Positions 1 through 12,444 of a stretch of 12,705 nucleotides of DNA are shown here, in pieces. Location: assembly GCA_964397635.1 (NCBI GenBank), contig CAYNJS010000024.1:1-12705 (forward strand), in the 5' to 3' direction. The notes beneath the pieces were generated by a model. That model worked only from the letters and a program-made list of their open reading frames with translations. It did not search any database and was not told the origin of the DNA. How positions within the stretch are numbered: position 1 is the stretch's first letter; every line of letters begins with the position of its first letter. The translations under genes were made by a program, and so were the position numbers. This DNA comes from an uncultured Gammaproteobacteria bacterium (lineage in GTDB: Bacteria; Patescibacteriota; Patescibacteriia; JAACEG01).

Positions 1-1306
1 CCATATATTTATAGTCAGAATCAAACGGAATCTCGACTAATCTTTTTTCTGTGGCTTCTATGTCTTTTTTTACAAGCCCAGCTTGAATAGCTGCTAAATA
101 TAAAGCTTTTTCGGTCGATGTACCTCTAACGATTGATTCTTTTGTCTTATCATCTATTCCCTCCATAAAAACATTATTACAAAGAAGCCCTATTTTTAAA
201 GCCAAATAATGATTAGGAGCTTCTTCTATAACAATCCCTTCCAGTCCATTTTCCTTTGATTTTAAAATAAAATCTTCTGTAACAACCTGATCCACTCTCA
301 TTTCCCCTTGGGTTAGAGTTCCTGTTTTATCGGTACAAATAACAGAAACCGATCCCAGTGTTTCGGCTGCCATCATTTTTTTAACTAAACCATCTTGTTT
401 TAAAATTTTCTGCATCCCTATGGCCAGGATTACTACCATTGCCGGCAAAAGACCCTCTGGAATAGCAGCCACAACAACAGCAACTGAAGTTAAAAACATC
501 TCATATAAATCCCTTTTCATTAAAACTCCAAATAAAAAAATCAAAGCGTTAATAAAAACCAAAGCCAAGCCCAGATTCCTGCTAAATAATTTAATCTTCT
601 TTTGCAATGGAGAATCTATTTCTTCTACATCCTTAACTAATGCTGTTATTTTGCCAAGTTCTGTGTTTATTCCTGTCCCAACTACAAGAGCCTTGCCCTC
701 GCCCCTAACTACCACGGTTCCCGCATAAAGCATATTAACCCTTTCAGACAATGGGATGCCGGATTCAATTTTTTCTACCTGCTTGGCCTCTGGAACAGGT
801 TCACCTGTTAGAGCAGCCTCTCCTGTCTCTAGATTGTTAATTTCCAAAACTCTGGCATCAGCCGGAACCTTGTCTCCTTGTTTTAAAACTATTAAATCCC
901 CTTTTACAATTTCTGATGACGGAACAATTTTTTCTTTTCCGCTTCTAATAACTTCTATATCGTATTTAATCATGTTACGGAGCTTCGCTATAGCGTCGTC
1001 AGCCTTTTTCTCCTGGAAAAATCCTATTATAGTACTAAAAAAAATAACAAATAAAATAAAAAAGCCATCAAAAACATGGCCCGTAAAAAAACTAATTATC
1101 GCGGCAATAAATAAAATATATATAACCGGATTTTCAAATTGTTTTAACAAAAGCTCTAAAGAGGAAAGCTTTTTGCCTTTTGGCAATTCATTTTTACCAT
1201 AAGAAGCAAGGCGCTTTTTTGCCTCTTCTACACTAAGTCCTTTAATAGTTGTTTTTAATTCTCTTAGGGTTTGCTTAATGGTAAGAGAATGAAAAATTTT
1301 TCCCAT
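1..1306 (-). CDS. Cation-transporting P-type ATPase, N-terminal ~435 aa. The gene runs off the left edge of the window. It looks P2-type (Ca2+/Mg2+-like).
   Basis: The ORF track misses this gene because there is no stop codon inside the window. My minus-strand translation from the ATG at 1304-1306 reads MGKIFHSLTIKQTLRELKTTIKGLSVEEAKKRLASYGKNELPKG..., a cation-ATPase N-terminal domain. The frame continues through ...GTVVRGEGKALVVGTGINTELGKI... at about 660-720. It reaches the canonical phosphorylation motif ICTDKTGTLT at 311-331. It continues through ...GTSTEKALYLAAIQAG... near 120. The frame stays open from 1306 down to 1. Confidence 0.85.
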   Translation of the reverse strand, partial: MGKIFHSLTIKQTLRELKTTIKGLSVEEAKKRLASYGKNELPKGKKLSSLELLLKQFENPVIYILFIAAIISFFTGHVFDGFFILFVIFFSTIIGFFQEKKADDAIAKLRNMIKYDIEVIRSGKEKIVPSSEIVKGDLIVLKQGDKVPADARVLEINNLETGEAALTGEPVPEAKQVEKIESGIPLSERVNMLYAGTVVVRGEGKALVVGTGINTELGKITALVKDVEEIDSPLQKKIKLFSRNLGLALVFINALIFLFGVLMKRDLYEMFLTSVAVVVAAIPEGLLPAMVVILAIGMQKILKQDGLVKKMMAAETLGSVSVICTDKTGTLTQGEMRVDQVVTEDFILKSKENGLEGIVIEEAPNHYLALKIGLLCNNVFMEGIDDKTKESIVRGTSTEKALYLAAIQAGLVKKDIEATEKRLVEIPFDSDYKYM

Positions 1307-1307
1307 A

Positions 1308-2024
1308 TTACTTTAAATTTATTTCACCACCCTTAGCTAATTTTCTTTTAATAACTTTTTTATCAGAAATAATTTTTCCATCAACAATATGAATTATCCT
1401 TTCAGCATGCTCTGATGTGTAGGTTTCATGAGTAACTAAAATAACTGTTTTACCTTGTCTGTTTAAATCTTGTAAAATTTTCATTATTTGGACGCCTGAC
1501 CTTGAATCTAAATTTCCAGTTGGCTCATCAGCAAAAACAATTTCTGGATCGTTAATTAAGGCTCTTGCAATAGCCACTCGTTGTTTTTCCCCACCAGACA
1601 ATTGATTAGAATAATGATCAATCCGATGACTTAGTCCAACTACGTCCAAAACTTTTCTAGCTCTTCCATCTAAATCCCCAACATTCTCACTATAAAAAAG
1701 TGGCAACTTAACATTTTCCAATACGGTTGTCCTGGGCAAAAGGTTAAACGACTGAAAAATAAAACCAATCCTTTTATTACGAAGATTAGCCAATTCATTT
1801 TCATCTAATTTTTTTATATCTTTGCCCTCAAAAATATACTCTCCTGCTGTTGGCTTGTCTAAAAAACCTAAAATATGCATCAAAGTTGACTTGCCAGATC
1901 CAGAGGGCCCCATAATAGAAATAAATTCCCCTTTTTCTACAATAAAAGTAAGGCCGCGCAAAACTTTTGTCACGACCCCTAGAGAACAATATTCTTTTTT
2001 TAAATTCTTAACATCAATTAACAT
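1308..2024 (-). CDS. ABC transporter ATP-binding protein of the MacB/LolD type, encoded as a stand-alone ATPase
   Basis: The Walker A motif is GPSGSGKST. The ABC signature is LSGGEKQRVAIARAL. The Walker B motif is IVFADEPTGNLD, and the H-loop is VTHE. The N-terminus MLIDVKNLKKEY is typical of this family. The stop codon lies 1 nt before the P-type ATPase ATG. The start lies 17 nt after the stop of the upstream adaptor gene. Confidence 0.9.
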   Translation of the reverse strand: MLIDVKNLKKEYCSLGVVTKVLRGLTFIVEKGEFISIMGPSGSGKSTLMHILGFLDKPTAGEYIFEGKDIKKLDENELANLRNKRIGFIFQSFNLLPRTTVLENVKLPLFYSENVGDLDGRARKVLDVVGLSHRIDHYSNQLSGGEKQRVAIARALINDPEIVFADEPTGNLDSRSGVQIMKILQDLNRQGKTVILVTHETYTSEHAERIIHIVDGKIISDKKVIKRKLAKGGEINLK

Positions 2025-2041: not shown

Positions 2042-3955
2042 CTATTTTTTATCTTTAACTGAAATAACAATTTGTTGGCCCCGTTCTAGACCGCCTAAAA
2101 TTTCTAATATCCCTCCATCACCCCTAATACCAGTTACAACTTGAATTTCATTAACCTCGTTACCATCTAAAACTCTCACAATCCTAACCCCTTCTTTTTC
2201 AATAACAGCTCTTTGGGGCACAAATAAAGCGTTATCTTTTTGGGCGGTTAAAATATCAAGGTTAGCAGTCATTCCAGATCTAATTGACTTACCCTTCCTG
2301 TCTTCTAGGGAAACTTTAACCCTATAATAAATTACATCTTGAATCTTTGTTTCAGTTGGGTTAATAAAAAATATTTTGCCCATAAATATTTCCTCTTCGC
2401 CAAAGGCGTCAAAGGTTATTGTTGTAACCTGATTTAATTCTATTTTATCAATATCAGCTTCAGAAATATCAGCTTCAATAATAAGTTGTGGTGAAATAAT
2501 TACGGCAACTTTATCTGAAACAGTTATGTTTTCGCCGACATCTCCATTTATATTTACTATCACTCCATCAGTTGGGGCTCGTAAAATAGTTTTTTCTAAA
2601 TTTTTATTAGCTAAAGATAAAGACGCTTCGGCCTGAGCAACCTGAGCCTCAAGACTTGCAATGTCAACTTGTCTTGGCGGGGCTTTTTTAAGATCAAATG
2701 AAGCTCTTGTTGTTTCCAGCGCCTTTTTCTTTGCTTCAATTTCAAGCTCAGCATTCTTAATAGCGTTTTCTGTTTGTGATTTAACTGAATCTAGTGTATG
2801 AGCAGCTATTTCTTTATTTTTTAAAGCTATATCATAGCTGCTTTTATTGGTATCATAAGAAGCCTGCGCACTGTCAACATTGGTTTTCTGAGCAATTTCA
2901 GCAGAAATTAAAGCTTGTTTTTTTGTTTGTAATGTAGTTAATTCGGTGTTATTACCTATTCGATCAGTATCAATAGTTGTTTTAAAACCATCAAGAGTTG
3001 TTTGAGTTAAGTCCTTGGAAACAACTGAATTATTTAAAAGTATCCTGGTATTAAGAAGCGCATTATCAAGAGAATACAAGGCCCATTCCATATCTTCGGC
3101 AATTGATTTTATTAGATCTATAGAATTATCGCCGTCTAATTCAACATACCTTTCTTCTGCTATCCTGTAATCACTACGCGCATCCCGGTAAGATTGCTGA
3201 GCAGCTTCAAATGTAGTGCTCTTAAGCCTTCCTAATGAAGATTGAAATTCGTCATTAACATCCTCATCATCAACTCCCAAAATTTCATCCATGTCTATTA
3301 AATATTCATAAATCTTTAATAGATTTTTTTGCATCGCGACTTTTAATGACTCATAGCCATCATCTACTGTTTGCTTATTGGTTACAATAACGTTTTCTAA
3401 ATTCTTTTCACTGTTTAATAAAGTAACGTTAGCTGCCTCCAGTGAAACTTCAGCATTTTGAAGATCAAGCTCAGCCCTTTTAATATCCTCTCCTCCTGAT
3501 TCTTTAACGTTGTCCAAGCTGGTTTCTGCTATTCTTAATGCAACTTCAGCTGATTTAACGTTAGTTTCCGCAACTTTTATATCCTCAAGGGTTGCTCCGG
3601 CTTTTTTAAGATCTAAGTTGGCTCTAGCCGCAGCAAGTGATGCTTCGGCTTCCTGAACCTGAATCTTTTCATCGTTAGCCTCAAGCTCAGCTATTATATC
3701 ATCTCTTTTAATATTATCCCCTTCATTAAAACCTATCTTCTCTAGCTTTCCATTAATCTCAAAGTGTAGATCTGTAGTTAAATCAGAAATAATAGAACCA
3801 GTAACGGAAACTGTTCTAGTTATGGTTCCCTTCCTTACTTGTTCAGTGTTGTATTCAACTTTTTTACTCTCTAAAAATTTTATTGTCCCAACGCTGGCAA
3901 TAATCAAAAATACAATAAGAAAAAATATTTCCTTTTTGTAATACTTAAGTTTCAT
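2042..3955 (-). CDS. HlyD/MacA-family periplasmic adaptor (membrane fusion protein), 637 aa, with an exceptionally long coiled-coil hairpin
   Basis: There is an N-terminal transmembrane anchor (FFLIVFLIIASVGTI). The N-terminal lipoyl half is TVSVTGSIISD...GDNIKRDDIIAELE. The C-terminal lipoyl half is TILRAPTDGVIVNINGDVGE. A beta-barrel/MPD domain follows (LFVPQRAVIEKEG...). About 360 residues between the two lipoyl halves are heptad-like and rich in A, E, K and L. Confidence 0.85.
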   Translation of the reverse strand: MKLKYYKKEIFFLIVFLIIASVGTIKFLESKKVEYNTEQVRKGTITRTVSVTGSIISDLTTDLHFEINGKLEKIGFNEGDNIKRDDIIAELEANDEKIQVQEAEASLAAARANLDLKKAGATLEDIKVAETNVKSAEVALRIAETSLDNVKESGGEDIKRAELDLQNAEVSLEAANVTLLNSEKNLENVIVTNKQTVDDGYESLKVAMQKNLLKIYEYLIDMDEILGVDDEDVNDEFQSSLGRLKSTTFEAAQQSYRDARSDYRIAEERYVELDGDNSIDLIKSIAEDMEWALYSLDNALLNTRILLNNSVVSKDLTQTTLDGFKTTIDTDRIGNNTELTTLQTKKQALISAEIAQKTNVDSAQASYDTNKSSYDIALKNKEIAAHTLDSVKSQTENAIKNAELEIEAKKKALETTRASFDLKKAPPRQVDIASLEAQVAQAEASLSLANKNLEKTILRAPTDGVIVNINGDVGENITVSDKVAVIISPQLIIEADISEADIDKIELNQVTTITFDAFGEEEIFMGKIFFINPTETKIQDVIYYRVKVSLEDRKGKSIRSGMTANLDILTAQKDNALFVPQRAVIEKEGVRIVRVLDGNEVNEIQVVTGIRGDGGILEILGGLERGQQIVISVKDKK

Positions 3956-4075: not shown

Positions 4076-4765
4076 TTAATTATCAATTTTCCGTATTATC
4101 CCAATCGGGGTTGATTCATCCTCTTGCCCCAAAGGATTATCTTTTAAGATCGCCTTTAACTTTCTTTTATATGTCCTCTTGCTATTTCCTAAAATATTAA
4201 TTCCTAAATCATTAGCGTCAACTATTGCTACTTTTATATTAAATTTCTTCTCAATTCTCTTAACTACTTTTTGAGGATTACTTGGTCCCTTGCTAGCATA
4301 CTCATTATAAGGCGGAATTGCGTAAGGAACCGGTCCATCAATTGACCTGGCACCCTGCCCGGCAATTACATAAAAAACTCCTCTAAGTCCAAATGGTTTT
4401 GTAATAGCAGCCAAAAAAGCAGCAAACAAAATACGAAGAATTCCCGCCTCTTCAATGGCAAGTTGCATTGTCTCGGGCATAGCAAGGCCAATGCCTCCTG
4501 GATTCCTATACACATACTTACTCAGGAGCGTTGCCGCTTTTGAAGCTTTGATGTCAGATATCCGATAGGACCTCCCCTGCATTACAGAAACAATCTTCTC
4601 ACTTATAAACATTATATCATTTTTACCCATATGGGACAAGGCATATTTTTCAATTACTTGCTCTAAATTATCGCCCGGGATAATCAAGTGAGTTTTAACC
4701 GGATAACGATAAAATTTACCATATTTAGTGTTTATGATTAAATTTTTCCCTGGATTAGAACGCAT
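4076..4765 (-). CDS. CofE-like protein. It resembles the F420-0:gamma-glutamyl ligase family (the N-terminal domain of CofE/FbiB, Pfam PF01996) but is divergent and short.
   Basis: IIPGDNLEQVIEKYALSHMGKNDIMFISEKIVSVMQGR resembles the CofE N-terminal segment (GDDL...DVLVV.SKVVSKAEGR). VIAGQGARSIDGP resembles the AGIDxSN segment. KVAIVDANDLGINILG resembles the VIITDTHGRPWRLG segment. The C-terminus PIGIIRKI resembles PVVLVRG. These comparisons come from my memory of the family, not from a database search. No Shine-Dalgarno sequence is evident. Confidence 0.5.
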   Translation of the reverse strand: MRSNPGKNLIINTKYGKFYRYPVKTHLIIPGDNLEQVIEKYALSHMGKNDIMFISEKIVSVMQGRSYRISDIKASKAATLLSKYVYRNPGGIGLAMPETMQLAIEEAGILRILFAAFLAAITKPFGLRGVFYVIAGQGARSIDGPVPYAIPPYNEYASKGPSNPQKVVKRIEKKFNIKVAIVDANDLGINILGNSKRTYKRKLKAILKDNPLGQEDESTPIGIIRKIDN

Positions 4766-4823: not shown

Positions 4824-5933
4824 TTAGGCTCTGCCCTTAGTATAACGACTAATGCTAGCAATTATACCAAAAGATCCCAAAAAAATCATTGCCGAAGACC
4901 CCCCTAAGCTAACCAGTGGCAGGGTTACTCCGGTTAAAGGCAAAATTCCAACCATTGCCCCAATATTAACTATACTTTGAATAGCAAACCAGCTAATAAT
5001 CCCCATTACTGTTAAAAAAGTAAACCTATCGGGCGAACTTCTGGCTATCTGATAACCCCTGTAAACAATAAAAGAAATCAACCCCATAAACAGAAAACAA
5101 ACAAAAAACCCTAACTCCTCGGCGATAATAGCAAAAATAGAGTCCCCCTCAACCTCAGGAAGGTATAAAAACTTTTGTTTTGAAGATCCAAAACCAACTC
5201 CCCACATCCCACCGGATCCAACTGCTAGAAAGGCCTGATTAATATGATAACCTATCCCCTTAACATCGTATTGAGGGTTCAAAAAAGATGTTAATCTGTT
5301 CTTTTGGTAATCTGGAGCAATTTGTAAAAATACAAAAACAAGTAATAACCCTATTAAAACCATTAAAGCTAAATGATCTTTTTTAGCTCCAGCTATAATA
5401 TATATCGCTATAGCTGTTAAGACAATAACCATAGCAGTTCCTAGGTCTGGCTGCATTAAAATTAACAACACAACGCCGCCTAATAACATGGAAAAAGGTA
5501 AAAAACCTTGATAAAAGTCCCTTATATTATCTTCCTTTCTTTTAGAGAACCACAGAGCTAAATATAAAATAAAAGCTAACTTGGCAATTTCCGAGGGCTG
5601 AAAAGATATTCCAAAAAAACTAAGCCAACTTCTGGCCTCACCATGGGATAGCCCAATAAATGGAATTAACACTAAAACAAGCAAAAATAAAGAAAAACCC
5701 ATAAACAAAGGGGTTATCTTCTTTAAAAACTCATAATCAAATCTAAAAAATATAAAAAACAATATTAACCCCGGAATAATCCCATGAAAAATCTGCTGCT
5801 TCACCTTAAAATAACTATCACCATAATCACGAAAAGAAACAACGCTACTGGCCGAAATCAAAGCCGCCAAACCAAAAACAACTAAAACTGCTAAAGACAA
5901 AATAAAAATATAATCAGGTGCGTGTGATTTCAT
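4824..5933 (-). CDS. SEDS-family peptidoglycan glycosyltransferase (FtsW/RodA/SpoVE)
   Basis: The protein has about 10 predicted transmembrane segments. The conserved SEDS blocks are present: QPSEIAKL, QPDLGTA, GSGGMWGVGFGSSKQKFLYLPEVEGDSIFAIIAEELG and LPLTGVTLPLVSLGGSS. A GGAG Shine-Dalgarno sequence sits 6 nt upstream of the ATG. Confidence 0.9.
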   Translation of the reverse strand: MKSHAPDYIFILSLAVLVVFGLAALISASSVVSFRDYGDSYFKVKQQIFHGIIPGLILFFIFFRFDYEFLKKITPLFMGFSLFLLVLVLIPFIGLSHGEARSWLSFFGISFQPSEIAKLAFILYLALWFSKRKEDNIRDFYQGFLPFSMLLGGVVLLILMQPDLGTAMVIVLTAIAIYIIAGAKKDHLALMVLIGLLLVFVFLQIAPDYQKNRLTSFLNPQYDVKGIGYHINQAFLAVGSGGMWGVGFGSSKQKFLYLPEVEGDSIFAIIAEELGFFVCFLFMGLISFIVYRGYQIARSSPDRFTFLTVMGIISWFAIQSIVNIGAMVGILPLTGVTLPLVSLGGSSAMIFLGSFGIIASISRYTKGRA

Positions 5934-6079: not shown

Positions 6080-6256
6080 TTAGAGTTTAATTCCGCAATC
6101 AGGGCAATAGTTAGCCCCCCAACCTTTCTTTTCCTTGTGATATACTTCACAATTCGGTACTACCTTTACTTTTTCGTTTACAGCTTCGTCGCAATGCACA
6201 CAATACCTTGTGTAATTTATACCTACATGATGACTACATTCTCTCTTTTTTGGCAT
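6080..6256 (-). CDS. Small Cys/His-rich zinc-ribbon protein of 58 aa. It is not in the supplied ORF track.
   Basis: I translated the minus strand by hand. The protein is MPKKRECSHHVGINYTRYCVHCDEAVNEKVKVVPNCEVYHKEKKGWGANYCPDCGIKL*. It has two CxxC knuckles, YCVHC and YCPDC, plus extra Cys and His residues at C7, H9, H10, C36 and H40. A strong Shine-Dalgarno sequence TAGGGGGT sits 7 nt upstream of the ATG (complement of 6254-6256). The stop is the complement of 6080-6082. The terminator follows immediately. Confidence 0.6.
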   Translation of the reverse strand: MPKKRECSHHVGINYTRYCVHCDEAVNEKVKVVPNCEVYHKEKKGWGANYCPDCGIKL

Positions 6257-6273
6257 TATTCAACCCCCTAACA

Positions 6274-6507
6274 TTACGTTGCGACCAACACACGTTCAGC
6301 CTGTTCCTTTCGCAAAGCTTCAACTCCTTCTTTAAGCTCGATATGCTCAAGCGCAAGCCTGCCAAAATCATTTGGTTCACCCTTAGCATCAAGGCAATGA
6401 ATGAACATTTCTGAATTGTACTCCTGAAAAAAGGCAAATAATTCTGGGTGGCGGTCTTCCCACCTTTGATAAACAACTTTAGTACTTCCCTGATTTTCAT
6501 CTGTCAT
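6274..6507 (-). CDS. Hypothetical acidic protein of 77 aa
   Basis: The ORF-track product is MTDENQGSTKVVYQRWEDRHPELFAFFQEYNSEMFIHCLDAKGEPNDFGRLALEHIELKEGVEALRKEQAERVLVAT. A strong Shine-Dalgarno sequence AAGGAG sits 7-8 nt upstream of the ATG. The gene lies 17 nt upstream of the zinc-ribbon gene in the same orientation. I recognise no family. Confidence 0.55.
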   Translation of the reverse strand: MTDENQGSTKVVYQRWEDRHPELFAFFQEYNSEMFIHCLDAKGEPNDFGRLALEHIELKEGVEALRKEQAERVLVAT

Positions 6508-6580: not shown

Positions 6581-7531
6581 TTAATTTTTTCTAAATCTCT
6601 CCAAAGTTACAAGAAGTGGACTAGCTAAAAAAATTGATGAATAAGTACCAGAAACAATACCAATAATTAAAGCTAACACAAAATACTTAATGCTTTCGCC
6701 TCCAAAGAAAAATAAAGTCGATAAAACGAATAAAGTTGTAAGTGATGTATAAACTGATCTAACTAAATTTTGATTAACACTTTTATTAACAGTTTCGGCA
6801 AAATCGGGAGTGTGGTGCTTTAAATTTTCCCTCACCCTGTCAAAAATAACAATTGTATCGTTTACTGAATATCCTAATATAGTTAAAAGAGCTGCTACAA
6901 ATGGCGCATTAAGCTCAACATTCATAAATCTACCTAAGAAAACAAAAATTCCAACCACAATCAAAATATCATGAAACAAGGCAACAATAGCAATGATTCC
7001 ATACTTCCAAGAGGCTACTGGCTTAGAAACCTTCCTAAAAGCCCAGGCAATAAAGCCAACGATAATAAGCAAGGCTATAAAAATAGCGTAAAGAGTCTTT
7101 TGTTTTAATTCCTGGCCAATAACTGGACCAATTGAGTTGAATCTTTTTTCTACAACTTTATTTTCCGGATTATTAACAGACGCGCCAATATATTCGCCAT
7201 CTTCTCCAGTTGGCACTAACATATCTAAACTTTTAGTTCTAAGTTTTGTTAATATTTCTTGATGAGTTTCCTCTGAAACAGATTTAAATCTTAAAATAAC
7301 TCCTTTGTCCCCTATTGGTTGAATAAATACATCACCCAAATCCAAATCATTTATCTTTTCCTCTATTTCTTGGGCCTGAGGTCGTTCCATGGTGTATTCT
7401 ATCTCCATTAAACTTCCACCAGTAAAATCAATTCCAAGCGGCAGCCCCCAAGAAAGAAGGCCAAATAAACTTATAACTACTAAAATACTTGAGATTGCGA
7501 AGTAAACTTTTCTAAATTTAATAATATTCAT
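6581..7531 (-). CDS. secF: Protein-export membrane protein SecF
   Basis: The topology is an N-terminal transmembrane segment, a periplasmic domain, then five C-terminal transmembrane segments. The SecF blocks are present: GIDFTGGSLMEIEY, GYSVNDTIVIFDRVREN and LVRSVYTSLTTLFVL. It lies immediately downstream of secD. Confidence 0.9.
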   Translation of the reverse strand: MNIIKFRKVYFAISSILVVISLFGLLSWGLPLGIDFTGGSLMEIEYTMERPQAQEIEEKINDLDLGDVFIQPIGDKGVILRFKSVSEETHQEILTKLRTKSLDMLVPTGEDGEYIGASVNNPENKVVEKRFNSIGPVIGQELKQKTLYAIFIALLIIVGFIAWAFRKVSKPVASWKYGIIAIVALFHDILIVVGIFVFLGRFMNVELNAPFVAALLTILGYSVNDTIVIFDRVRENLKHHTPDFAETVNKSVNQNLVRSVYTSLTTLFVLSTLFFFGGESIKYFVLALIIGIVSGTYSSIFLASPLLVTLERFRKN

Positions 7532-7543
7532 AGTTCAATTACA

Positions 7544-9259
7544 TTATTTCTTACTAAAACTTTTTAATAAAAATCTTGTTATAACAACCGCGCTAAACAT
7601 ACTGATCAAAACACCAATAACCAAAGTTATAGCAAAGCCTTTAACCATGCTGGTTGAAAACCAAATTAAAATAATACTGGTTAGGATAGTAGAAATATTA
7701 CCATCACGAATAGATGTCCAGGCTCTAGCAAAACCATCCTCAACTAACTGTAAACCGCTTTTACCTATTTTTTTCTCTTCTTTAATACGTTCAAAAATCA
7801 AAACATTAGCATCAACAGCCATACCAATCGATAAAATTAAACCGGCAAGACCTGCTAAGGTTAAAGTGATTCCTAAAAATTTAAATACAGACAAGGTAAT
7901 AACACCATAAATTAAAAGCGCTAAAACAGCCGCGATTCCTTTTACCCTGTATATCAATAACATGAAAATAGCAATAGCAAGCAGTCCGTAAAGGCCGGCG
8001 TTTAAACTTTTACTCAAAGATTCTTCTCCCAAACTTGCCCCAACTGTGTTTTGACTAATAAGTTCAATTGGCACAGGCAATGCACCGGCGTTAAGCCTTT
8101 GAGACAAAAGTTTTGCCTCTTGAATATTAAACCTACCGGATATTATCGCTCTACCGTCTCTAATTTGTTCGTTTACAACTGGAATACTAATTGGATCCCC
8201 GTCTAAAAATATCGCCACCAACTTACCAATATTCCTTTGTGTAATATCGGCAAATAACTCTTTACCCTCATCATTAAATGTTAAGCTAACCTGTGGTTCA
8301 TTAGTATTAGGATCAAATTCAACTTGGCTCTTTACCAATTGACCGCCAGACAAGCCCGTACTCTTCCATGGATCAGCCGGCGGGATAAAATCAATTTCTG
8401 CTTTTGTTCTAATTAAAATATGAGCAGCCCTTACCTCGGTATTATCTGTTCCGTCGGGCTGCAAACCGCCTCTAACCTCTTCTTTTTTAACTATATGATA
8501 ACCAAACTGAGTTTGTATTGGTTCGGCGGTTATTTCTCCAACCTCTAAATCTTCAAAAATAGCTTTTTCAAATTCTGGAACCATCATTCCACGGCCAGCA
8601 AAACCAAGTTCACCGCCTTCTGCCTGACTGCCTGGATCCTCTGAAAATTCCTTAGCAAGTTCTGCAAAATCCTCGCCTTCATTAATTTTTTTAATAATAC
8701 CCTTAGCTTTTTCCAGCGCTTCTAAATTAAAATCATCAAGCTCTTGAACCTCTTCTTCGGTTAATTCCCTTGATGGCTCATTGTTTTCTTCTTTAAACTC
8801 TAAAATAGGAGTTTCCCCTATCATTTTAATTGCCTGATCAACATTATGAACGCCAGCAAGCTCAATAATAAGTCTCCACTTATTCTGAGAGTGTTCTGTT
8901 TGTACCAATGGCTCTGATACGCCAAAAGCATTAACCCTTCGCTCAATTACGTCTCTAACCCCTTCTAAGGCTGATACTTTTTCCTCTTCGTCACCTTCAA
9001 CCCGAGACACATCAGCTTCGTAAACTAAGTGGGTTCCACCTTGCAAGTCCAGACCCAACCTAAAAGGAACATTCCAAAAATGAGGGATATTTGATCCAAT
9101 TTTAGGATTTAACCAATCAACTCCCTTATCAAAATAACTAGGGACTACATAAAAAGAAGCAAAAATACTAACTAAAACAACAGTTAAAATCGTTAACCTG
9201 TATTTTAACTTATAAGACTCTTGCTTTACAATTTTGTTCAAAAAACCTTTAAACGACAT
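7544..9259 (-). CDS. secD: Protein-export membrane protein SecD, with a ~110-aa parvulin (PpiC-type) PPIase-like domain inserted in the periplasmic P1 head
   Basis: The SecD blocks are present: [130 protein letters not shown] and a C-terminal 6-TM bundle. Between LEF(K) and TGLSGGQL lies [40 protein letters not shown]...[12 protein letters not shown], followed by AAHILIR. These are the hallmark motifs of parvulin rotamases. Confidence 0.9.
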   Translation of the reverse strand: [571 protein letters not shown]

Positions 9260-9287
9260 AAATATTTTAACAATAACTAATCTTTAT

Positions 9288-9447
9288 GGGACTGTCGCCA
9301 AATACCGTTTTTGAGATAAATTTTCAGATTTTAAGGAAATTTCTGGATAAAAATTTTTGCTTATACGGTAATATAGGCCAAAAATTTTTATAGGAAATTT
9401 ACCAAAAGATGGAAATTTAGACGAAATCGGTGTTTGGCGACAGTCCC
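9288..9447. repeat. A 160-bp element bounded by 20-bp terminal inverted repeats and flanked by a 5-bp direct repeat. It is a candidate MITE or a long structured leader.
   Basis: The left arm is GGGACTGTCGCCAAATACCG at 9288-9307. The reverse complement of the right arm at 9428-9447 is GGGACTGTCGCCAAACACCG, a 19/20 match. TTTAT flanks the element directly at 9283-9287 and again at 9448-9452. The interior is AT-rich with three copies of GGAAATTT and two of AAAATTTTT. The element lies in the 240-bp gap between the SPFH-gene terminator and the secD start. Confidence 0.4.
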
Positions 9448-9460
9448 TTTATTAAAAAAT

Positions 9461-9500
9461 ACAAAAGGTCCACTTGCGTGCCCCCTTTTGTATATATATT
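9461..9500 (-). terminator. Candidate intrinsic terminator after the SPFH gene
   Basis: The minus strand reads ACAAAAGG-(15-nt loop GGGCACGCAAGTGGA)-CCTTTTGT, followed by ATTTTTTAAT. It starts a few nt after the stop at 9501. The stem is only 8 bp and AT-rich, so confidence is moderate. Confidence 0.4.
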
Positions 9501-10070
9501 TTATTTAGTTGGTCTCACTTCTGAAAGTAAAATATTCTCAACTAGTATGCCTCTAGGGTAGAAAATTCTTTCCAATTCTTCTTTTAGTTTCCTCTCTACT
9601 TCATCACGCTTAGTAGAAATTATCTCTTGTAAACTATATTTAGAAGCGATCAACCTAGTCCTGCTTCGAACGGTTGGTCTAATTATCTTTTCCACAAATT
9701 CTTCTCCAATATTTTGCCAAATGTGAGGAATTTGATCGATGTCTAATCTAAGCAAAACTGTTCCTTCAATCGCTGCTGTGCTTCCGTTTGAAGCTACAAT
9801 TCTAATAGGCTCATCTCCCATTAGTTTTGTTTTACTCATATCAAAGCTTTTACTGATATTATACTCAAGAGTTTGAGTATTAAAAAGCTTAGCTTTTTGC
9901 CAAAATGGAACTTTTAAGTGCAGGCCTGGACGTAAAACCTTTCGAAGAACTCCCCGGCCTAAATCGTAAACACAAGCAACGTATCCTGGTGGAACTTTAA
10001 TAAAAAATCCCTTTAAAACGTCTTCCACTACAAAGGAATACATTATCTTGTCTAAATTTTCTGATGACAT
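9501..10070 (-). CDS. SPFH/band-7 (prohibitin/HflKC-like) domain protein of 189 aa. It is a minimal form with no transmembrane anchor and no C-terminal coiled coil.
   Basis: VPPGYVACVYDLGRGVLRKVLRPGLHLKVPFWQKAKLFNTQTL matches the start of the SPFH domain, as in prohibitin (GEGTHFLIPWVQKPIIFD). IGEEFVEKIIRPTVRSRTRLIASKYSLQEIISTKRDEVERKLKEELE matches the prohibitin stretch IGEDYDERVLPSI...ELITQRELVSRQV. The N-terminal 25 residues contain no hydrophobic segment. Confidence 0.75.
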   Translation of the reverse strand: MSSENLDKIMYSFVVEDVLKGFFIKVPPGYVACVYDLGRGVLRKVLRPGLHLKVPFWQKAKLFNTQTLEYNISKSFDMSKTKLMGDEPIRIVASNGSTAAIEGTVLLRLDIDQIPHIWQNIGEEFVEKIIRPTVRSRTRLIASKYSLQEIISTKRDEVERKLKEELERIFYPRGILVENILLSEVRPTK

Positions 10071-10104
10071 AAAAAATCAAGAAAAAACCCCTTTTTCAAG
10101 GGTC

Positions 10105-10794
10105 TTATTTCTTTTTTAATGGTTTAATAAATAAACGTAATATTATTGATACAATAACTGTAAATAAAATCGATGTCAAGATAAAAATTGACTTAACAGC
10201 CGGCAACAACGCCAAAACCACAACAGAGGTAATTGGAAATAAATACTTAAAAAAGATATCCGACTCTCGAAGTAGATGCTTTTGCATTCTTTGATTATAA
10301 GCAATTTCTACAAACAATACCACTCCTATAAAAAGAGCCAAATAAAAATTCCTTTCGCCCAAATTAATTCCCCAAAAAGTTAAATTAATAAAATCCGGAG
10401 AAGGAACTGTTGTGTAAAGATCATCAAATTTATTATTAATCCCCCCTAAAAAAACCTGGTATAAAAGCACCAAAACAAGAGCTTGAACACCTAAAACAAC
10501 TGTCTTGGCCCAAGGCCTAATTTTATACCTTTTCATTGCTTCCCTAGCCTCCTGCTTAGCTTGCTCTGGATCATGTTTATAGTCTTCACCGATTTTCTTA
10601 ATCTCTCGCCCTAACATTTCATAGCGAATCTTATTTCTTTGGGCAAAAAAAGTAAAAGGCAATAAAAGCAACCTAAGAATAATAGTCAAATAAATTACAG
10701 CCAAACCCAAACTAAAAGCATCCTTGTACTGATACAAAACTATAAGCAAATTAAAAAGGGGTTTGTATAAAAACTCGTCCCAAATAAATTCCAT
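10105..10794 (-). CDS. yidC: YidC/Oxa1-family membrane protein insertase, short form (229 aa, no large periplasmic P1 domain)
   Basis: The conserved YidC core is present: GLAVIYLTIILRLLLLPFTFFAQRNKIRYEMLGREIKKIGEDYKHDPEQAKQEAREAMKRYKIRPWAKTVVLGVQALVLVLLYQV. The N-terminus KPLFNLLIVLYQ is also typical. There are five predicted transmembrane segments and a basic C-terminal tail, KPLKKK. Confidence 0.85.
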   Translation of the reverse strand: MEFIWDEFLYKPLFNLLIVLYQYKDAFSLGLAVIYLTIILRLLLLPFTFFAQRNKIRYEMLGREIKKIGEDYKHDPEQAKQEAREAMKRYKIRPWAKTVVLGVQALVLVLLYQVFLGGINNKFDDLYTTVPSPDFINLTFWGINLGERNFYLALFIGVVLFVEIAYNQRMQKHLLRESDIFFKYLFPITSVVVLALLPAVKSIFILTSILFTVIVSIILRLFIKPLKKK

Positions 10795-10992: not shown

Positions 10993-12444
10993 TTATCGCC
11001 CAACAAGTTTCATTATACTCTTCCTTAATCTTTCAATTGACTCATCTTTACCTAGAATATTTGCTATTTCAAAGGCTCCGCCTGGAGTAAATTGCTTACC
11101 AGACAAAGCTATTCTAACTGGCCATAAGACTTGACCGTTTTTAAGTCCTAAATCTTTAATTAATTTTATTAATTCTTCTTTGATTACTTCCTCATTCCAA
11201 TCTTTCATTGGCCCAAAAACAACAATAACTTTTTCCAAAATATTTTTTGCTAAATTTTCATCGACCTTCATTTTCTCGTTTACATATAACTTGGTATCAT
11301 AATCTGGTAATTCGTTTAAAAAATCTATCATCTCTGGAATTTCGCTTAAAATTTCTACTCGTGTATGTAAAATCTTGCTAATTTCCATTAAATCTAATCC
11401 TTTTTTAACATCCTTATAATATGGGGCTGCTAATTTATAAAACTCCTCTAAACTTTTACGCCTAATGTGCTCGCTATTTATCCAACGCAATTTTTGGCTA
11501 TCAAAAACTGCAGAACTTACCCCCATTCTGTCGATTGAAAATTCTTTTACCAGCTCATCTAAATTAAAAATTTCTTTTTCATCTTTGGGATGCCATCCAA
11601 GCAGAGCTGAAAAATTAAGCAAAGCTTCTGGCAAATAACCTTTTTTACGATAATCCTCAACAGCCACATCTCCTTGACGCTTGCTTAATTTACCGCCATC
11701 CTTGTTTAAAGTTAATGGAATATGAATATATTTTGGAGCCATCCAATTAAAAGCCTTATAAAGCAGAATGTTTTTAGACAATGATGGTATCCATTCAGCA
11801 CCACGAATAACGTGGGTTATCTCCATTGTATGATCATCTACTACATTAGCAAATTGATATGTAGGAATCCCGTCAGATTTTATAAGAACCTGATCATCAA
11901 GCTCCTTATTATCAAATTCAATTTCTCCGCGAAGCTCATCGTAACACTTGGTCTTCCCTTCAAGTGGCATCTTTTGTCTAATCACGTATTTTTCTCCATT
12001 GGCTAAATTTTCTTTTATTTCTGCAGCTGTCAATTTACGACAATGGTTATCATATTTTGGAGCCTGCTTGTTTTTTACCTGAAAATCTCTTAAATTTTTT
12101 AATCTTTCCTCAGAACAAAAACAATAATAAACCTCCTCCTTATCTAAAAGTTCTTTTAAGTATTTATTATAAATTTCCAGTCTCTCAGTTTGGATATATG
12201 GACCATACTTTCCATCAGCACTCCCAGGGCCTTCATTAAATTTTATTCCAACCCAATCCAAAATAGCCACTAAATTTTCAACAGCTCCCTCAACCTGTCT
12301 TTTCTGATCAGTGTCTTCAATCCTAAGAATAAAATCTCCCCCATCTTTTTTAGCCAACAAGTAATCAAAAAGAACTGTTCGAAGGCTCCCAATGTGTAAA
12401 AATCCTGTTGGACTAGGCGCAAAGCGCGTTCTTGTTTTTTTCAT
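10993..12444 (-). CDS. gltX: Glutamyl-tRNA synthetase (class I)
   Basis: The N-terminus is RFAPSPTGFLHIGSLRT with the HIGH motif. The KMSKS motif appears as GGKLSKRQG. WPVRIALSG is a characteristic GluRS block. A GluRS-type zinc cluster, CFCSEERL...NHCRKL, is present. The length of 483 aa fits. Confidence 0.95.
   Translation of the reverse strand: MKKTRTRFAPSPTGFLHIGSLRTVLFDYLLAKKDGGDFILRIEDTDQKRQVEGAVENLVAILDWVGIKFNEGPGSADGKYGPYIQTERLEIYNKYLKELLDKEEVYYCFCSEERLKNLRDFQVKNKQAPKYDNHCRKLTAAEIKENLANGEKYVIRQKMPLEGKTKCYDELRGEIEFDNKELDDQVLIKSDGIPTYQFANVVDDHTMEITHVIRGAEWIPSLSKNILLYKAFNWMAPKYIHIPLTLNKDGGKLSKRQGDVAVEDYRKKGYLPEALLNFSALLGWHPKDEKEIFNLDELVKEFSIDRMGVSSAVFDSQKLRWINSEHIRRKSLEEFYKLAAPYYKDVKKGLDLMEISKILHTRVEILSEIPEMIDFLNELPDYDTKLYVNEKMKVDENLAKNILEKVIVVFGPMKDWNEEVIKEELIKLIKDLGLKNGQVLWPVRIALSGKQFTPGGAFEIANILGKDESIERLRKSIMKLVGR

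Follow-up and report, generated by a model that had tools for sequence, protein, structure and literature searches.

The secD gene in a 12,705-nucleotide stretch of DNA from an uncultured bacterium (contig CAYNJS010000024.1, assembly GCA_964397635.1; the whole stretch is referred to here as the window) encodes a SecD protein with a parvulin-type peptidyl-prolyl isomerase (PPIase) domain in its extracytoplasmic part. We consider it very likely that the domain is an insertion into SecD and that it is circularly permuted. The feature is real, conserved, under selection and lineage-wide rather than unique to this contig, and the best explanation is probably that a permuted, intact parvulin acts within SecD as a foldase or holdase. 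The segments of secD and its partner gene are the following.

7544..9259, minus strand: secD coding sequence, 571 amino acids (aa) (open reading frame [ORF], TIGR01129 and phmmer to 3AQP)
8783..8962, minus strand: N-terminal segment of the P1 base, aa 100-159 (Pfam SecD_1st, E 1.8e-15; aligned with Thermus thermophilus SecDF 33-116)
8408..8791, minus strand: whole insert, aa 157-284, with linker helix, parvulin core, loop and putative relocated beta1 (3AQP alignment)
8072..8359, minus strand: P1 head subdomain, aa 301-396 (Pfam SecDF_P1_head, E 1.2e-27, profile 19-114/114)
7553..8068, minus strand: SecD transmembrane (TM) domain, aa 398-569 (Pfam SecD_SecF_C; contains Asp483 of TM helix 4)
6581..7531, minus strand: secF, 316 aa, directly downstream of secD (TIGR00966, 281.9 bits against a cutoff of 160)

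Judged by its database matches, the 571-aa protein is a genuine SecD, the predicted proton-driven accessory motor of the Sec translocon. It scores 374.4 bits with TIGR01129 (cutoff, 244.4), with aa 68-565 covering model positions 1-397 of 397, and phmmer matches it to the T. thermophilus SecDF structure 3AQP with an E value of 8e-82. Pfam detects Sec_GG, SecD_1st, SecDF_P1_head and SecD_SecF_C, the three SecD domains exceeding the cutoff. Asp483 of TM4 lies in MAVDANVL, opposite AAVDGNVL of T. thermophilus, and is invariant across 115 relatives; the T. thermophilus residue, D340, is the proton-pathway Asp of TM4. The GYSVNDTIVIFDRVREN motif was found in SecF. The protein shares with canonical SecD, represented by T. 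thermophilus SecDF (3AQP/3AQO/5YHF), the TM1 helix, P1 base, P1 head, six-helix RND (resistance-nodulation-division)-like domain, TM4 Asp and SecF partner.

The difference lies between the P1 base and the P1 head. In the alignment with 3AQP, residues 66-156 of the query correspond to T. thermophilus residues 33-116 and residues 277-568 to residues 135-425, which places the insert between T. thermophilus positions 116 and 135. Query residues 157-276 replace T. thermophilus residues 117-134, so that ~18 residues of canonical SecD stand against a folded PPIase domain of ~120-127 residues. Native SecD sequence is found again at about aa 284-285, where it aligns with T. thermophilus EELEKDLIKPED. 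Compared with T. thermophilus SecDF, the protein gains a net ~100-120 aa at this point. As defined by the Pfam boundaries and the 3AQP alignment alone, the insertion falls in the connector that joins the N-terminal P1-base segment, whose SecD_1st match (aa 100-159) finishes in a strand, to the P1 head. The P1-head profile match opens at position 19 (aa 301), and the first 18 positions of that profile would fall just past the insert. An initial annotation of this DNA had located the domain in a loop of the P1 head; the boundaries move it to the base-to-head connector, outside the head. The coordinates given there, 8390-8728 (aa 178-290), do lie inside the ORF, but the proposed size of ~110 residues had to be revised, as 144 residues separate K156 from T301.

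The same annotation had recognized a parvulin domain within SecD, and this is borne out by the Pfam matches of the 571-aa protein. Rotamase_3 (PF13616) matches aa 178-261 with an E value of 1.3e-24 (87.4 bits; cutoff, 22.5), and Rotamase (PF00639) matches aa 180-260 with an E value of 3e-21 (76.6 bits; cutoff, 21.7), with SecD domains on both flanks. The NCBIfam models for PrsA, SurA and PpiC match the same stretch, and the sequence matches of the insert in the PDB are PrsA (6VJ6, E 8e-20), SurA, Par10 and Pin1. All the motifs quoted in the annotation are present in the order given, far beyond chance, from LEFK (153-156) through parvulin motifs at aa 195-211, 215-235 and 241-258 to AAHILIR (278-284) and TGLSGGQL (301-308). 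No SurA_N or trigger-factor-type Pfam domain was found in the full protein or in the isolated insert, where the Rotamase families alone match. The insert is divided as follows.

8681..8758, minus strand: long helix, aa 168-193 (helix 12-37 of an AlphaFold2 [AF2] model, predicted local distance difference test [pLDDT] score >90)
8474..8728, minus strand: parvulin core without beta1, aa 178-262, with alpha1-alpha3, beta2 (GGELGF), alpha4, beta3 and beta4
8438..8473, minus strand: new beta4-to-beta1 connecting loop, aa 263-274
8408..8437, minus strand: putative relocated beta1 strand with the predicted catalytic His280, aa 275-284 (AF2 strand 119-128, pLDDT ~97)

Parvulin alpha1 corresponds to the C-terminal half of the long helix, whereas the N-terminal half forms a stalk leading from the P1 base. 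The linker part of this helix differs among relatives.

The order of these elements departs from that of known parvulins, in which beta1 precedes alpha1-3, beta2, alpha4, beta3 and beta4. The Rotamase_3 match opens at profile position 33 of 116 and the Rotamase match at position 17 of 97, which indicates that the first strand is missing from the N terminus. Indeed, the region upstream of the core is a single helix, with no strand before alpha1. When the trailing strand was transplanted in front of the core, the Rotamase_3 score rose from 89.2 to 97.8-99.4 bits and the match reached profile position 13, while a shuffled strand gave 90.3 bits and an upstream SecD strand 92.5 bits. An independent hidden Markov model (HMM), made from 63 canonical non-SecD parvulin domains, behaved similarly: with the strand in front the score increased from 103.1 to 109.1 bits, which was equalled by 2 of 500 shuffles and by none of 300 random SecD 15-mers, and the strand agreed with the canonical beta1 consensus "rvrarhIlv".

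The isolated insert (aa 157-300) was modelled with AF2 from an alignment of 46 single-copy relatives, which gave a pLDDT of 91 and a predicted template modeling score (pTM) of 0.81. The model contains the long helix at aa 168-193, two short helices, beta2 at 217-222, the PEFEKAIF helix, beta3, beta4 at 253-263 and a final strand at 275-284. In model numbering the strands are beta2 at 61-66, beta3, beta4 at 97-107 and the trailing strand at 119-128, with no others. A parvulin fold, that is, a four-stranded antiparallel sheet packed by helices, is thereby predicted, with the beta1-like strand coming after beta4, and its core superposes on PrsA at 1.1 Å. With the isolated parvulin domains 1ZK6 and 1JNT, 79 of 91-92 residues were aligned, leaving about one strand over. 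Since beta3 lies on one edge of beta4, beta2 needs a partner and one strand remains, the trailing strand would occupy the beta1 slot between beta4 and beta2 and would run antiparallel to beta4, the orientation of beta1 in parvulins. The circular permutant proposed in the initial annotation is backed by agreement among the profile start, the AF2 strand order, the strand-transplant scores and the invariant His280.

Several points weigh against a permutation. The gain in profile score from the strand is just 6-10 bits, which can be attributed to its short length. A doubled-sequence pairwise alignment to a canonical PrsA, the PrsA-like lipoprotein L009, crosses the junction, but its gain of 10 raw units is not significant (69 of 1,000 shuffles). 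The placement of the trailing strand in the beta1 slot of the model is argued from the secondary structure, the pLDDT and strand-pairing logic, not from measured contacts, and the AF2 alignment was limited to 46 fairly close sequences. The rival explanation is that the insert is an unpermuted parvulin fragment and AAHILIR a hinge or head strand of SecD that resembles beta1 by chance, the sheet then lacking beta1 or borrowing a strand from SecD. The nonsignificant pairwise gain fits this explanation, as does the PF00639 transplant test, in which the true strand and the upstream SecD strand had equal scores (83.2 bits), and phmmer sets aa 277-283 opposite T. thermophilus SecDF 135-141. However, that part of the alignment has essentially zero identities, and the isolated insert, modelled without the SecD head, still forms the strand with a pLDDT of ~97. 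The invariant His fits the canonical beta1 signature V-x-A-x-H-I-L-[VI], and both Rotamase_3 and the independent HMM prefer the true strand to the controls.

More distant relatives also speak against a chance resemblance. The 50%-identity representatives P0129, P0139, P0146 and P0240 all have an xSHIL[IF]x strand after beta4, behind loops of very unlike length, from ~8 to ~60 residues. A loop that newly connects the former termini would be expected to vary in this way while the strand is retained. Taken with the evidence above, an unpermuted fragment is very improbable. In P0146 (624 aa) and P0240 (905 aa) the loops from beta4 to the relocated beta1 are Gly/Val/Glu-rich and 55-60 residues long, with the EVRASHILIRKK strand intact. 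Each of these two proteins has an additional P1-head insertion (FIDGMSPIDENDDGVIDAQDVYAP...), and the 905-aa length of P0240 suggests a fused SecDF.

A sister class with two parvulin copies gives a second view of the trailing strand. This class of ~680 aa comprises 69 of the 115 aligned relatives (within P0022-P0120), and its insert, for example aa 150-392 of P0115, is equivalent to window positions 8408-8791. The first copy (copy A) has alpha1 and runs from GxDFxxLxKEYSED through GYNIIKV, without a beta1 of its own, with the His replaced and the MVPEFE helix lost. The second (copy B) is a complete canonical parvulin, EVKASHILICY ... FGYHLIYK, covering Pfam profile positions 4-111. An extra strand, EYxxxRILIxTK, follows copy B at the place where the query has AAHILIR. 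It is hard to explain why a strand would be retained behind a complete canonical parvulin unless it completes the core that lacks beta1. The His positions point in the same direction: the middle beta1 and the beta4 of copy B have His/His in 68 of 69 two-copy sequences, while those of the copy-A beta4 and the trailing strand co-vary (55 sequences have N/R, 2 have H/H and 4 pair Y/Q/T with Q), although the sequences in these counts are not independent. These observations suggest that the trailing strand is part of copy A, a permuted and largely degenerate unit whose beta4-beta1 loop would hold copy B as a nested domain. At the sequence level, this arrangement looks the same as a permuted unit duplicated in tandem.

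Whether the domain is catalytic was judged from the residues of the active site. Parvulins have a tetrad of the form His-Cys/Asp-Ser/Thr-His, which is H59/C113/T152/H157 in Pin1 and H42/D74/T118/H123 in Par14. The corresponding H280, D208, T250 and H255 are all present in the sequence of the insert, where we take Asp208 to be at the position of Pin1 Cys113 and Par14 Asp74. Their locations, and their conservation in the single-copy (short) class of 46 sequences, are the following.

8636..8638, minus strand: codon of Asp208, in SEDPGS (46/46)
8495..8512, minus strand: Thr250 to His255, in TQFGYH, the beta3/beta4 half of the tetrad (Thr/Ser 46/46, His 45/46)
8420..8422, minus strand: codon of His280 (His 46/46)

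This conservation occurs in a parvulin region with just 38-56% pairwise identity among the 46 relatives, in which the substrate-pocket residues MVPEFE/F are also kept. Conservation of the trailing strand matches that of both the P1 head and the membrane domain, and the most variable parts of the insert are the loop before this strand and the connector after it. As judged from the alignment, the tetrad and the MVPEFE substrate helix are maintained by selection, and the domain apparently has an intact active site. This bears on the main rival to a working foldase, namely, that the parvulin is real and permuted but catalytically irrelevant, acting as a docking module or as a passive surface for substrate binding or holdase action. 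Parvulin domains at translocons and in chaperones can be catalytically inactive, as are the parvulin domain of PpiD and the P1 domain of SurA, and the activity of the insert is predicted from sequence only. Moreover, copy A of the ~680-aa class is retained despite having lost both His residues and the MVPEFE helix, which shows that noncatalytic parvulin copies are tolerated and kept at the insertion site. Against this stand the near-invariant tetrad of these divergent single-copy sequences, the conserved substrate pocket and the presence of one copy with both His residues in every two-copy protein. On balance a catalytically irrelevant domain seems unlikely, and a catalytic foldase function of the insert, as distinct from a foldase or holdase role in general, has about an even chance of being correct.

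In our reading, the parvulin PPIase domain is spliced into the P1-base-to-P1-head connector at the outer face of the membrane. The permutant runs alpha1, beta2, alpha4, beta3, beta4, a new variable loop and the beta1 strand, which would fill its normal slot between beta4 and beta2 before the chain passes straight into native SecD. In the mechanism that we propose, the insert would act in cis as a foldase or holdase, meeting unfolded secretory chains as the P1 head takes them from the SecYEG exit. Fixed at the hinge of a moving arm, it could, in these bacteria with small genomes, do in cis what PrsA, PpiD and SurA do in trans in others. More speculatively, the permutation shifts the points of attachment to the other end of beta1, which may turn the catalytic face relative to SecD from where an ordinary insertion would set it.

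The survey of homologues showed that the architecture is not restricted to this contig. In the best 120 matches from a collection of 5.8 billion proteins, Rotamase and SecD Pfam domains occurred together in all 120. These came from NCBI, JGI, ENA and Logan assemblies, some on contigs of >500 kb, and >115 distinct 90%-identity clusters have the SecD-parvulin architecture. A search with aa 140-310 over 1.8 billion representatives found SecD-type flanking motifs, by regular expression, in 25 of the 150 best 50%-identity representatives; this search was dominated by multi-parvulin PrsA/SurA/PpiD-like proteins, as domain scores add up. A contig scan with the single insert sequence returned 17 loci, about nine of them SecD with the insert and the remainder ordinary parvulins, and is a poor taxonomic census. 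One further protein, P0170 (396 aa), has the SecD N terminus, the P1 base and two parvulin copies followed by a Pro/Thr-rich tail, without P1 head or membrane domain; this might reflect gene truncation or a frameshift, or mean that P0170 is a protein in its own right.

All the informative names among the best 120 matches are from Patescibacteria (Falkowbacteria, Magasanikbacteria, Kuenenbacteria, Buchananbacteria and "Patescibacteria group"), and the nearest named relatives are "Candidatus Falkowbacteria" proteins with 78-79% identity. Three carriers have proteobacterial labels: L001 (JAACEG010000012.1, "Lysobacteraceae"), L008 (CAYYDP010000044.1, "Gammaproteobacteria") and P0009 ("Xanthomonadaceae"). 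The L001 contig combines 30% GC with a SecD 75% identical to the query, which makes its bin assignment probably wrong; L001 is probably a Patescibacteria contig and the Lysobacteraceae and Xanthomonadaceae labels probably reflect mis-binning. L008, with 46% GC, is of the single-copy type, with the strand EVESRHILISKK. Such labels on some metagenome-assembled genomes (MAGs), along with the short metagenomic contig (12.7 kb) that holds the query, could be read as signs of an assembly or gene-calling artefact or of a decaying pseudogene in a single metagenome bin. The query is, however, one unbroken ORF with SecD motifs intact on both flanks, and the >115 independent clusters, recovered from four sources, leave this explanation a negligible chance; artefact or mis-binning is effectively refuted by the breadth of independent assemblies.

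The relatives are named "protein translocase subunit SecD" in their sources, with one "peptidylprolyl isomerase, partial". Domain databases detect the parvulin in SecD automatically and leave the architecture unnamed. The initial annotation had called the architecture unfamiliar for SecD, in line with our full-text literature searches, in which neither a SecD-parvulin fusion nor a circularly permuted parvulin was found described, most subscription journals being outside their coverage.

The rest of the window, which has a GC content of 34%, contains the following genes.

10993-12444, minus strand: gltX
10105-10794, minus strand: yidC
9501-10070, minus strand: SPFH/Band-7 gene
4824-5933, minus strand: ftsW
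4076-4765, minus strand: F420-ligase-like gene
2042-3955, minus strand: HlyD-like gene
1308-2024, minus strand: ABC ATPase gene

The yidC, SPFH/Band-7, secD and secF genes are co-directional (6581-10794, minus strand) and together make up a compact locus for membrane-protein biogenesis. No significant Pfam family was found for three small ORFs, of 88 aa (6234-6500, minus strand), 148 aa (756-1202, plus strand) and 102 aa (420-728, plus strand); the first is located between secF and ftsW. Nested inverted repeats occupy intergenic positions 9288-9447, upstream of the secD start (9259). The outer arms of 24 nucleotides (9288-9311 and 9424-9447) are 92% complementary with 112 nucleotides between them, and the inner arms of 32 nucleotides (9328-9359 and 9379-9410) are 72% complementary. 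A miniature inverted-repeat element or a structured leader of secD could account for these repeats; Rfam gave no match anywhere in the window, this region included. A small hairpin at 9459-9493 resembles a terminator of the SPFH gene, and no tRNAs were found in the window.

The parvulin foldases PrsA, SurA and PpiD act on the same side of the membrane as SecDF P1. SecDF uses the proton-motive force to swing the P1 head, which binds the emerging unfolded chain (PMC6028853). SurA binds the holo-translocon, and in AlphaFold models its parvulin domains lie against the P1 head of SecDF (PMC9987972). PpiD-YfgM binds SecYEG (PMC9643414). PPIC lipoproteins resembling PrsA crosslink to SecD(F) in Mycoplasma pneumoniae (bioRxiv 10.1101/2024.09.05.611430, 10.1101/2025.04.25.650208) and are reported to form a dome over the translocon (bioRxiv 10.1101/2025.04.25.650208).

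The closest cores to that of the insert are those of PrsA (Bacillus cereus 6VJ6 and Bacillus subtilis 1ZK6), with 44-58% identity in structural alignments, and the core of L009, from a Roseiflexaceae MAG, is 64% identical to the insert. PrsA and the insert also have in common an Asp-type tetrad and an extracytoplasmic location adjoining the translocon. PrsA, in contrast, has the canonical strand order (in L009, NSAHILV before alpha1) and a lipid anchor of its own, together with an N/C chaperone domain, whereas in the insert beta1 comes last, no chaperone domain was detected and SecD itself is the anchor, the domain being internal to the SecD ORF (aa 157-284). The insert is thus not a separate polypeptide with its own signal peptide, lipid or TM anchor, as PrsA, SurA and PpiD are, and one long helix precedes the core in place of a SurA-like or trigger-factor-like N/C-terminal module. 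Escherichia coli PpiD-YfgM and SurA resemble it as parvulin-domain chaperones at the periplasmic exit of the Sec machinery; they are, however, separate polypeptides that act in trans, whereas here the domain is covalently part of SecD and keeps its catalytic residues. The M. pneumoniae dome (Mpn444/436/489) is another case in which a genome-reduced bacterium physically couples a parvulin foldase to SecDF at the translocon exit, but it does so in trans, through a large trimeric lipoprotein with canonical, unpermuted PPIC domains that are not inserted in SecD.

How secretory proteins pass from the Sec channel to the folding factors beyond the membrane has so far been argued from interactions that are weak and transient, those of PpiD-YfgM, of SurA with the holo-translocon and of the Mycoplasma dome. 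The covalent joining of a parvulin to the mobile P1 domain of SecD throughout a lineage provides independent evidence, from evolution, for a link between the two activities, and it offers a compact, stoichiometric system for studying the coupling of translocation to folding. For the parvulin field the domain would be a natural circular permutant, whose origin could be shown by its single-copy, long-loop and two-copy relatives. For the biology of the candidate phyla radiation, it is a case of a small genome consolidating functions in one envelope protein. A bolder possibility, which we put forward tentatively and regard as somewhat less likely than not to hold in full, is that an active foldase on the hinge of the P1 arm is presented with the chain at each power stroke and replaces free foldases of the PrsA/PpiD/SurA type in Patescibacteria. 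Translocation and folding would then be coupled within one polypeptide, the fusion would provide Rosetta-stone evidence for parvulin chaperones at the SecDF P1 head in bacteria generally, and the two-copy class would preserve the duplication stage of a natural domain permutation or nesting.

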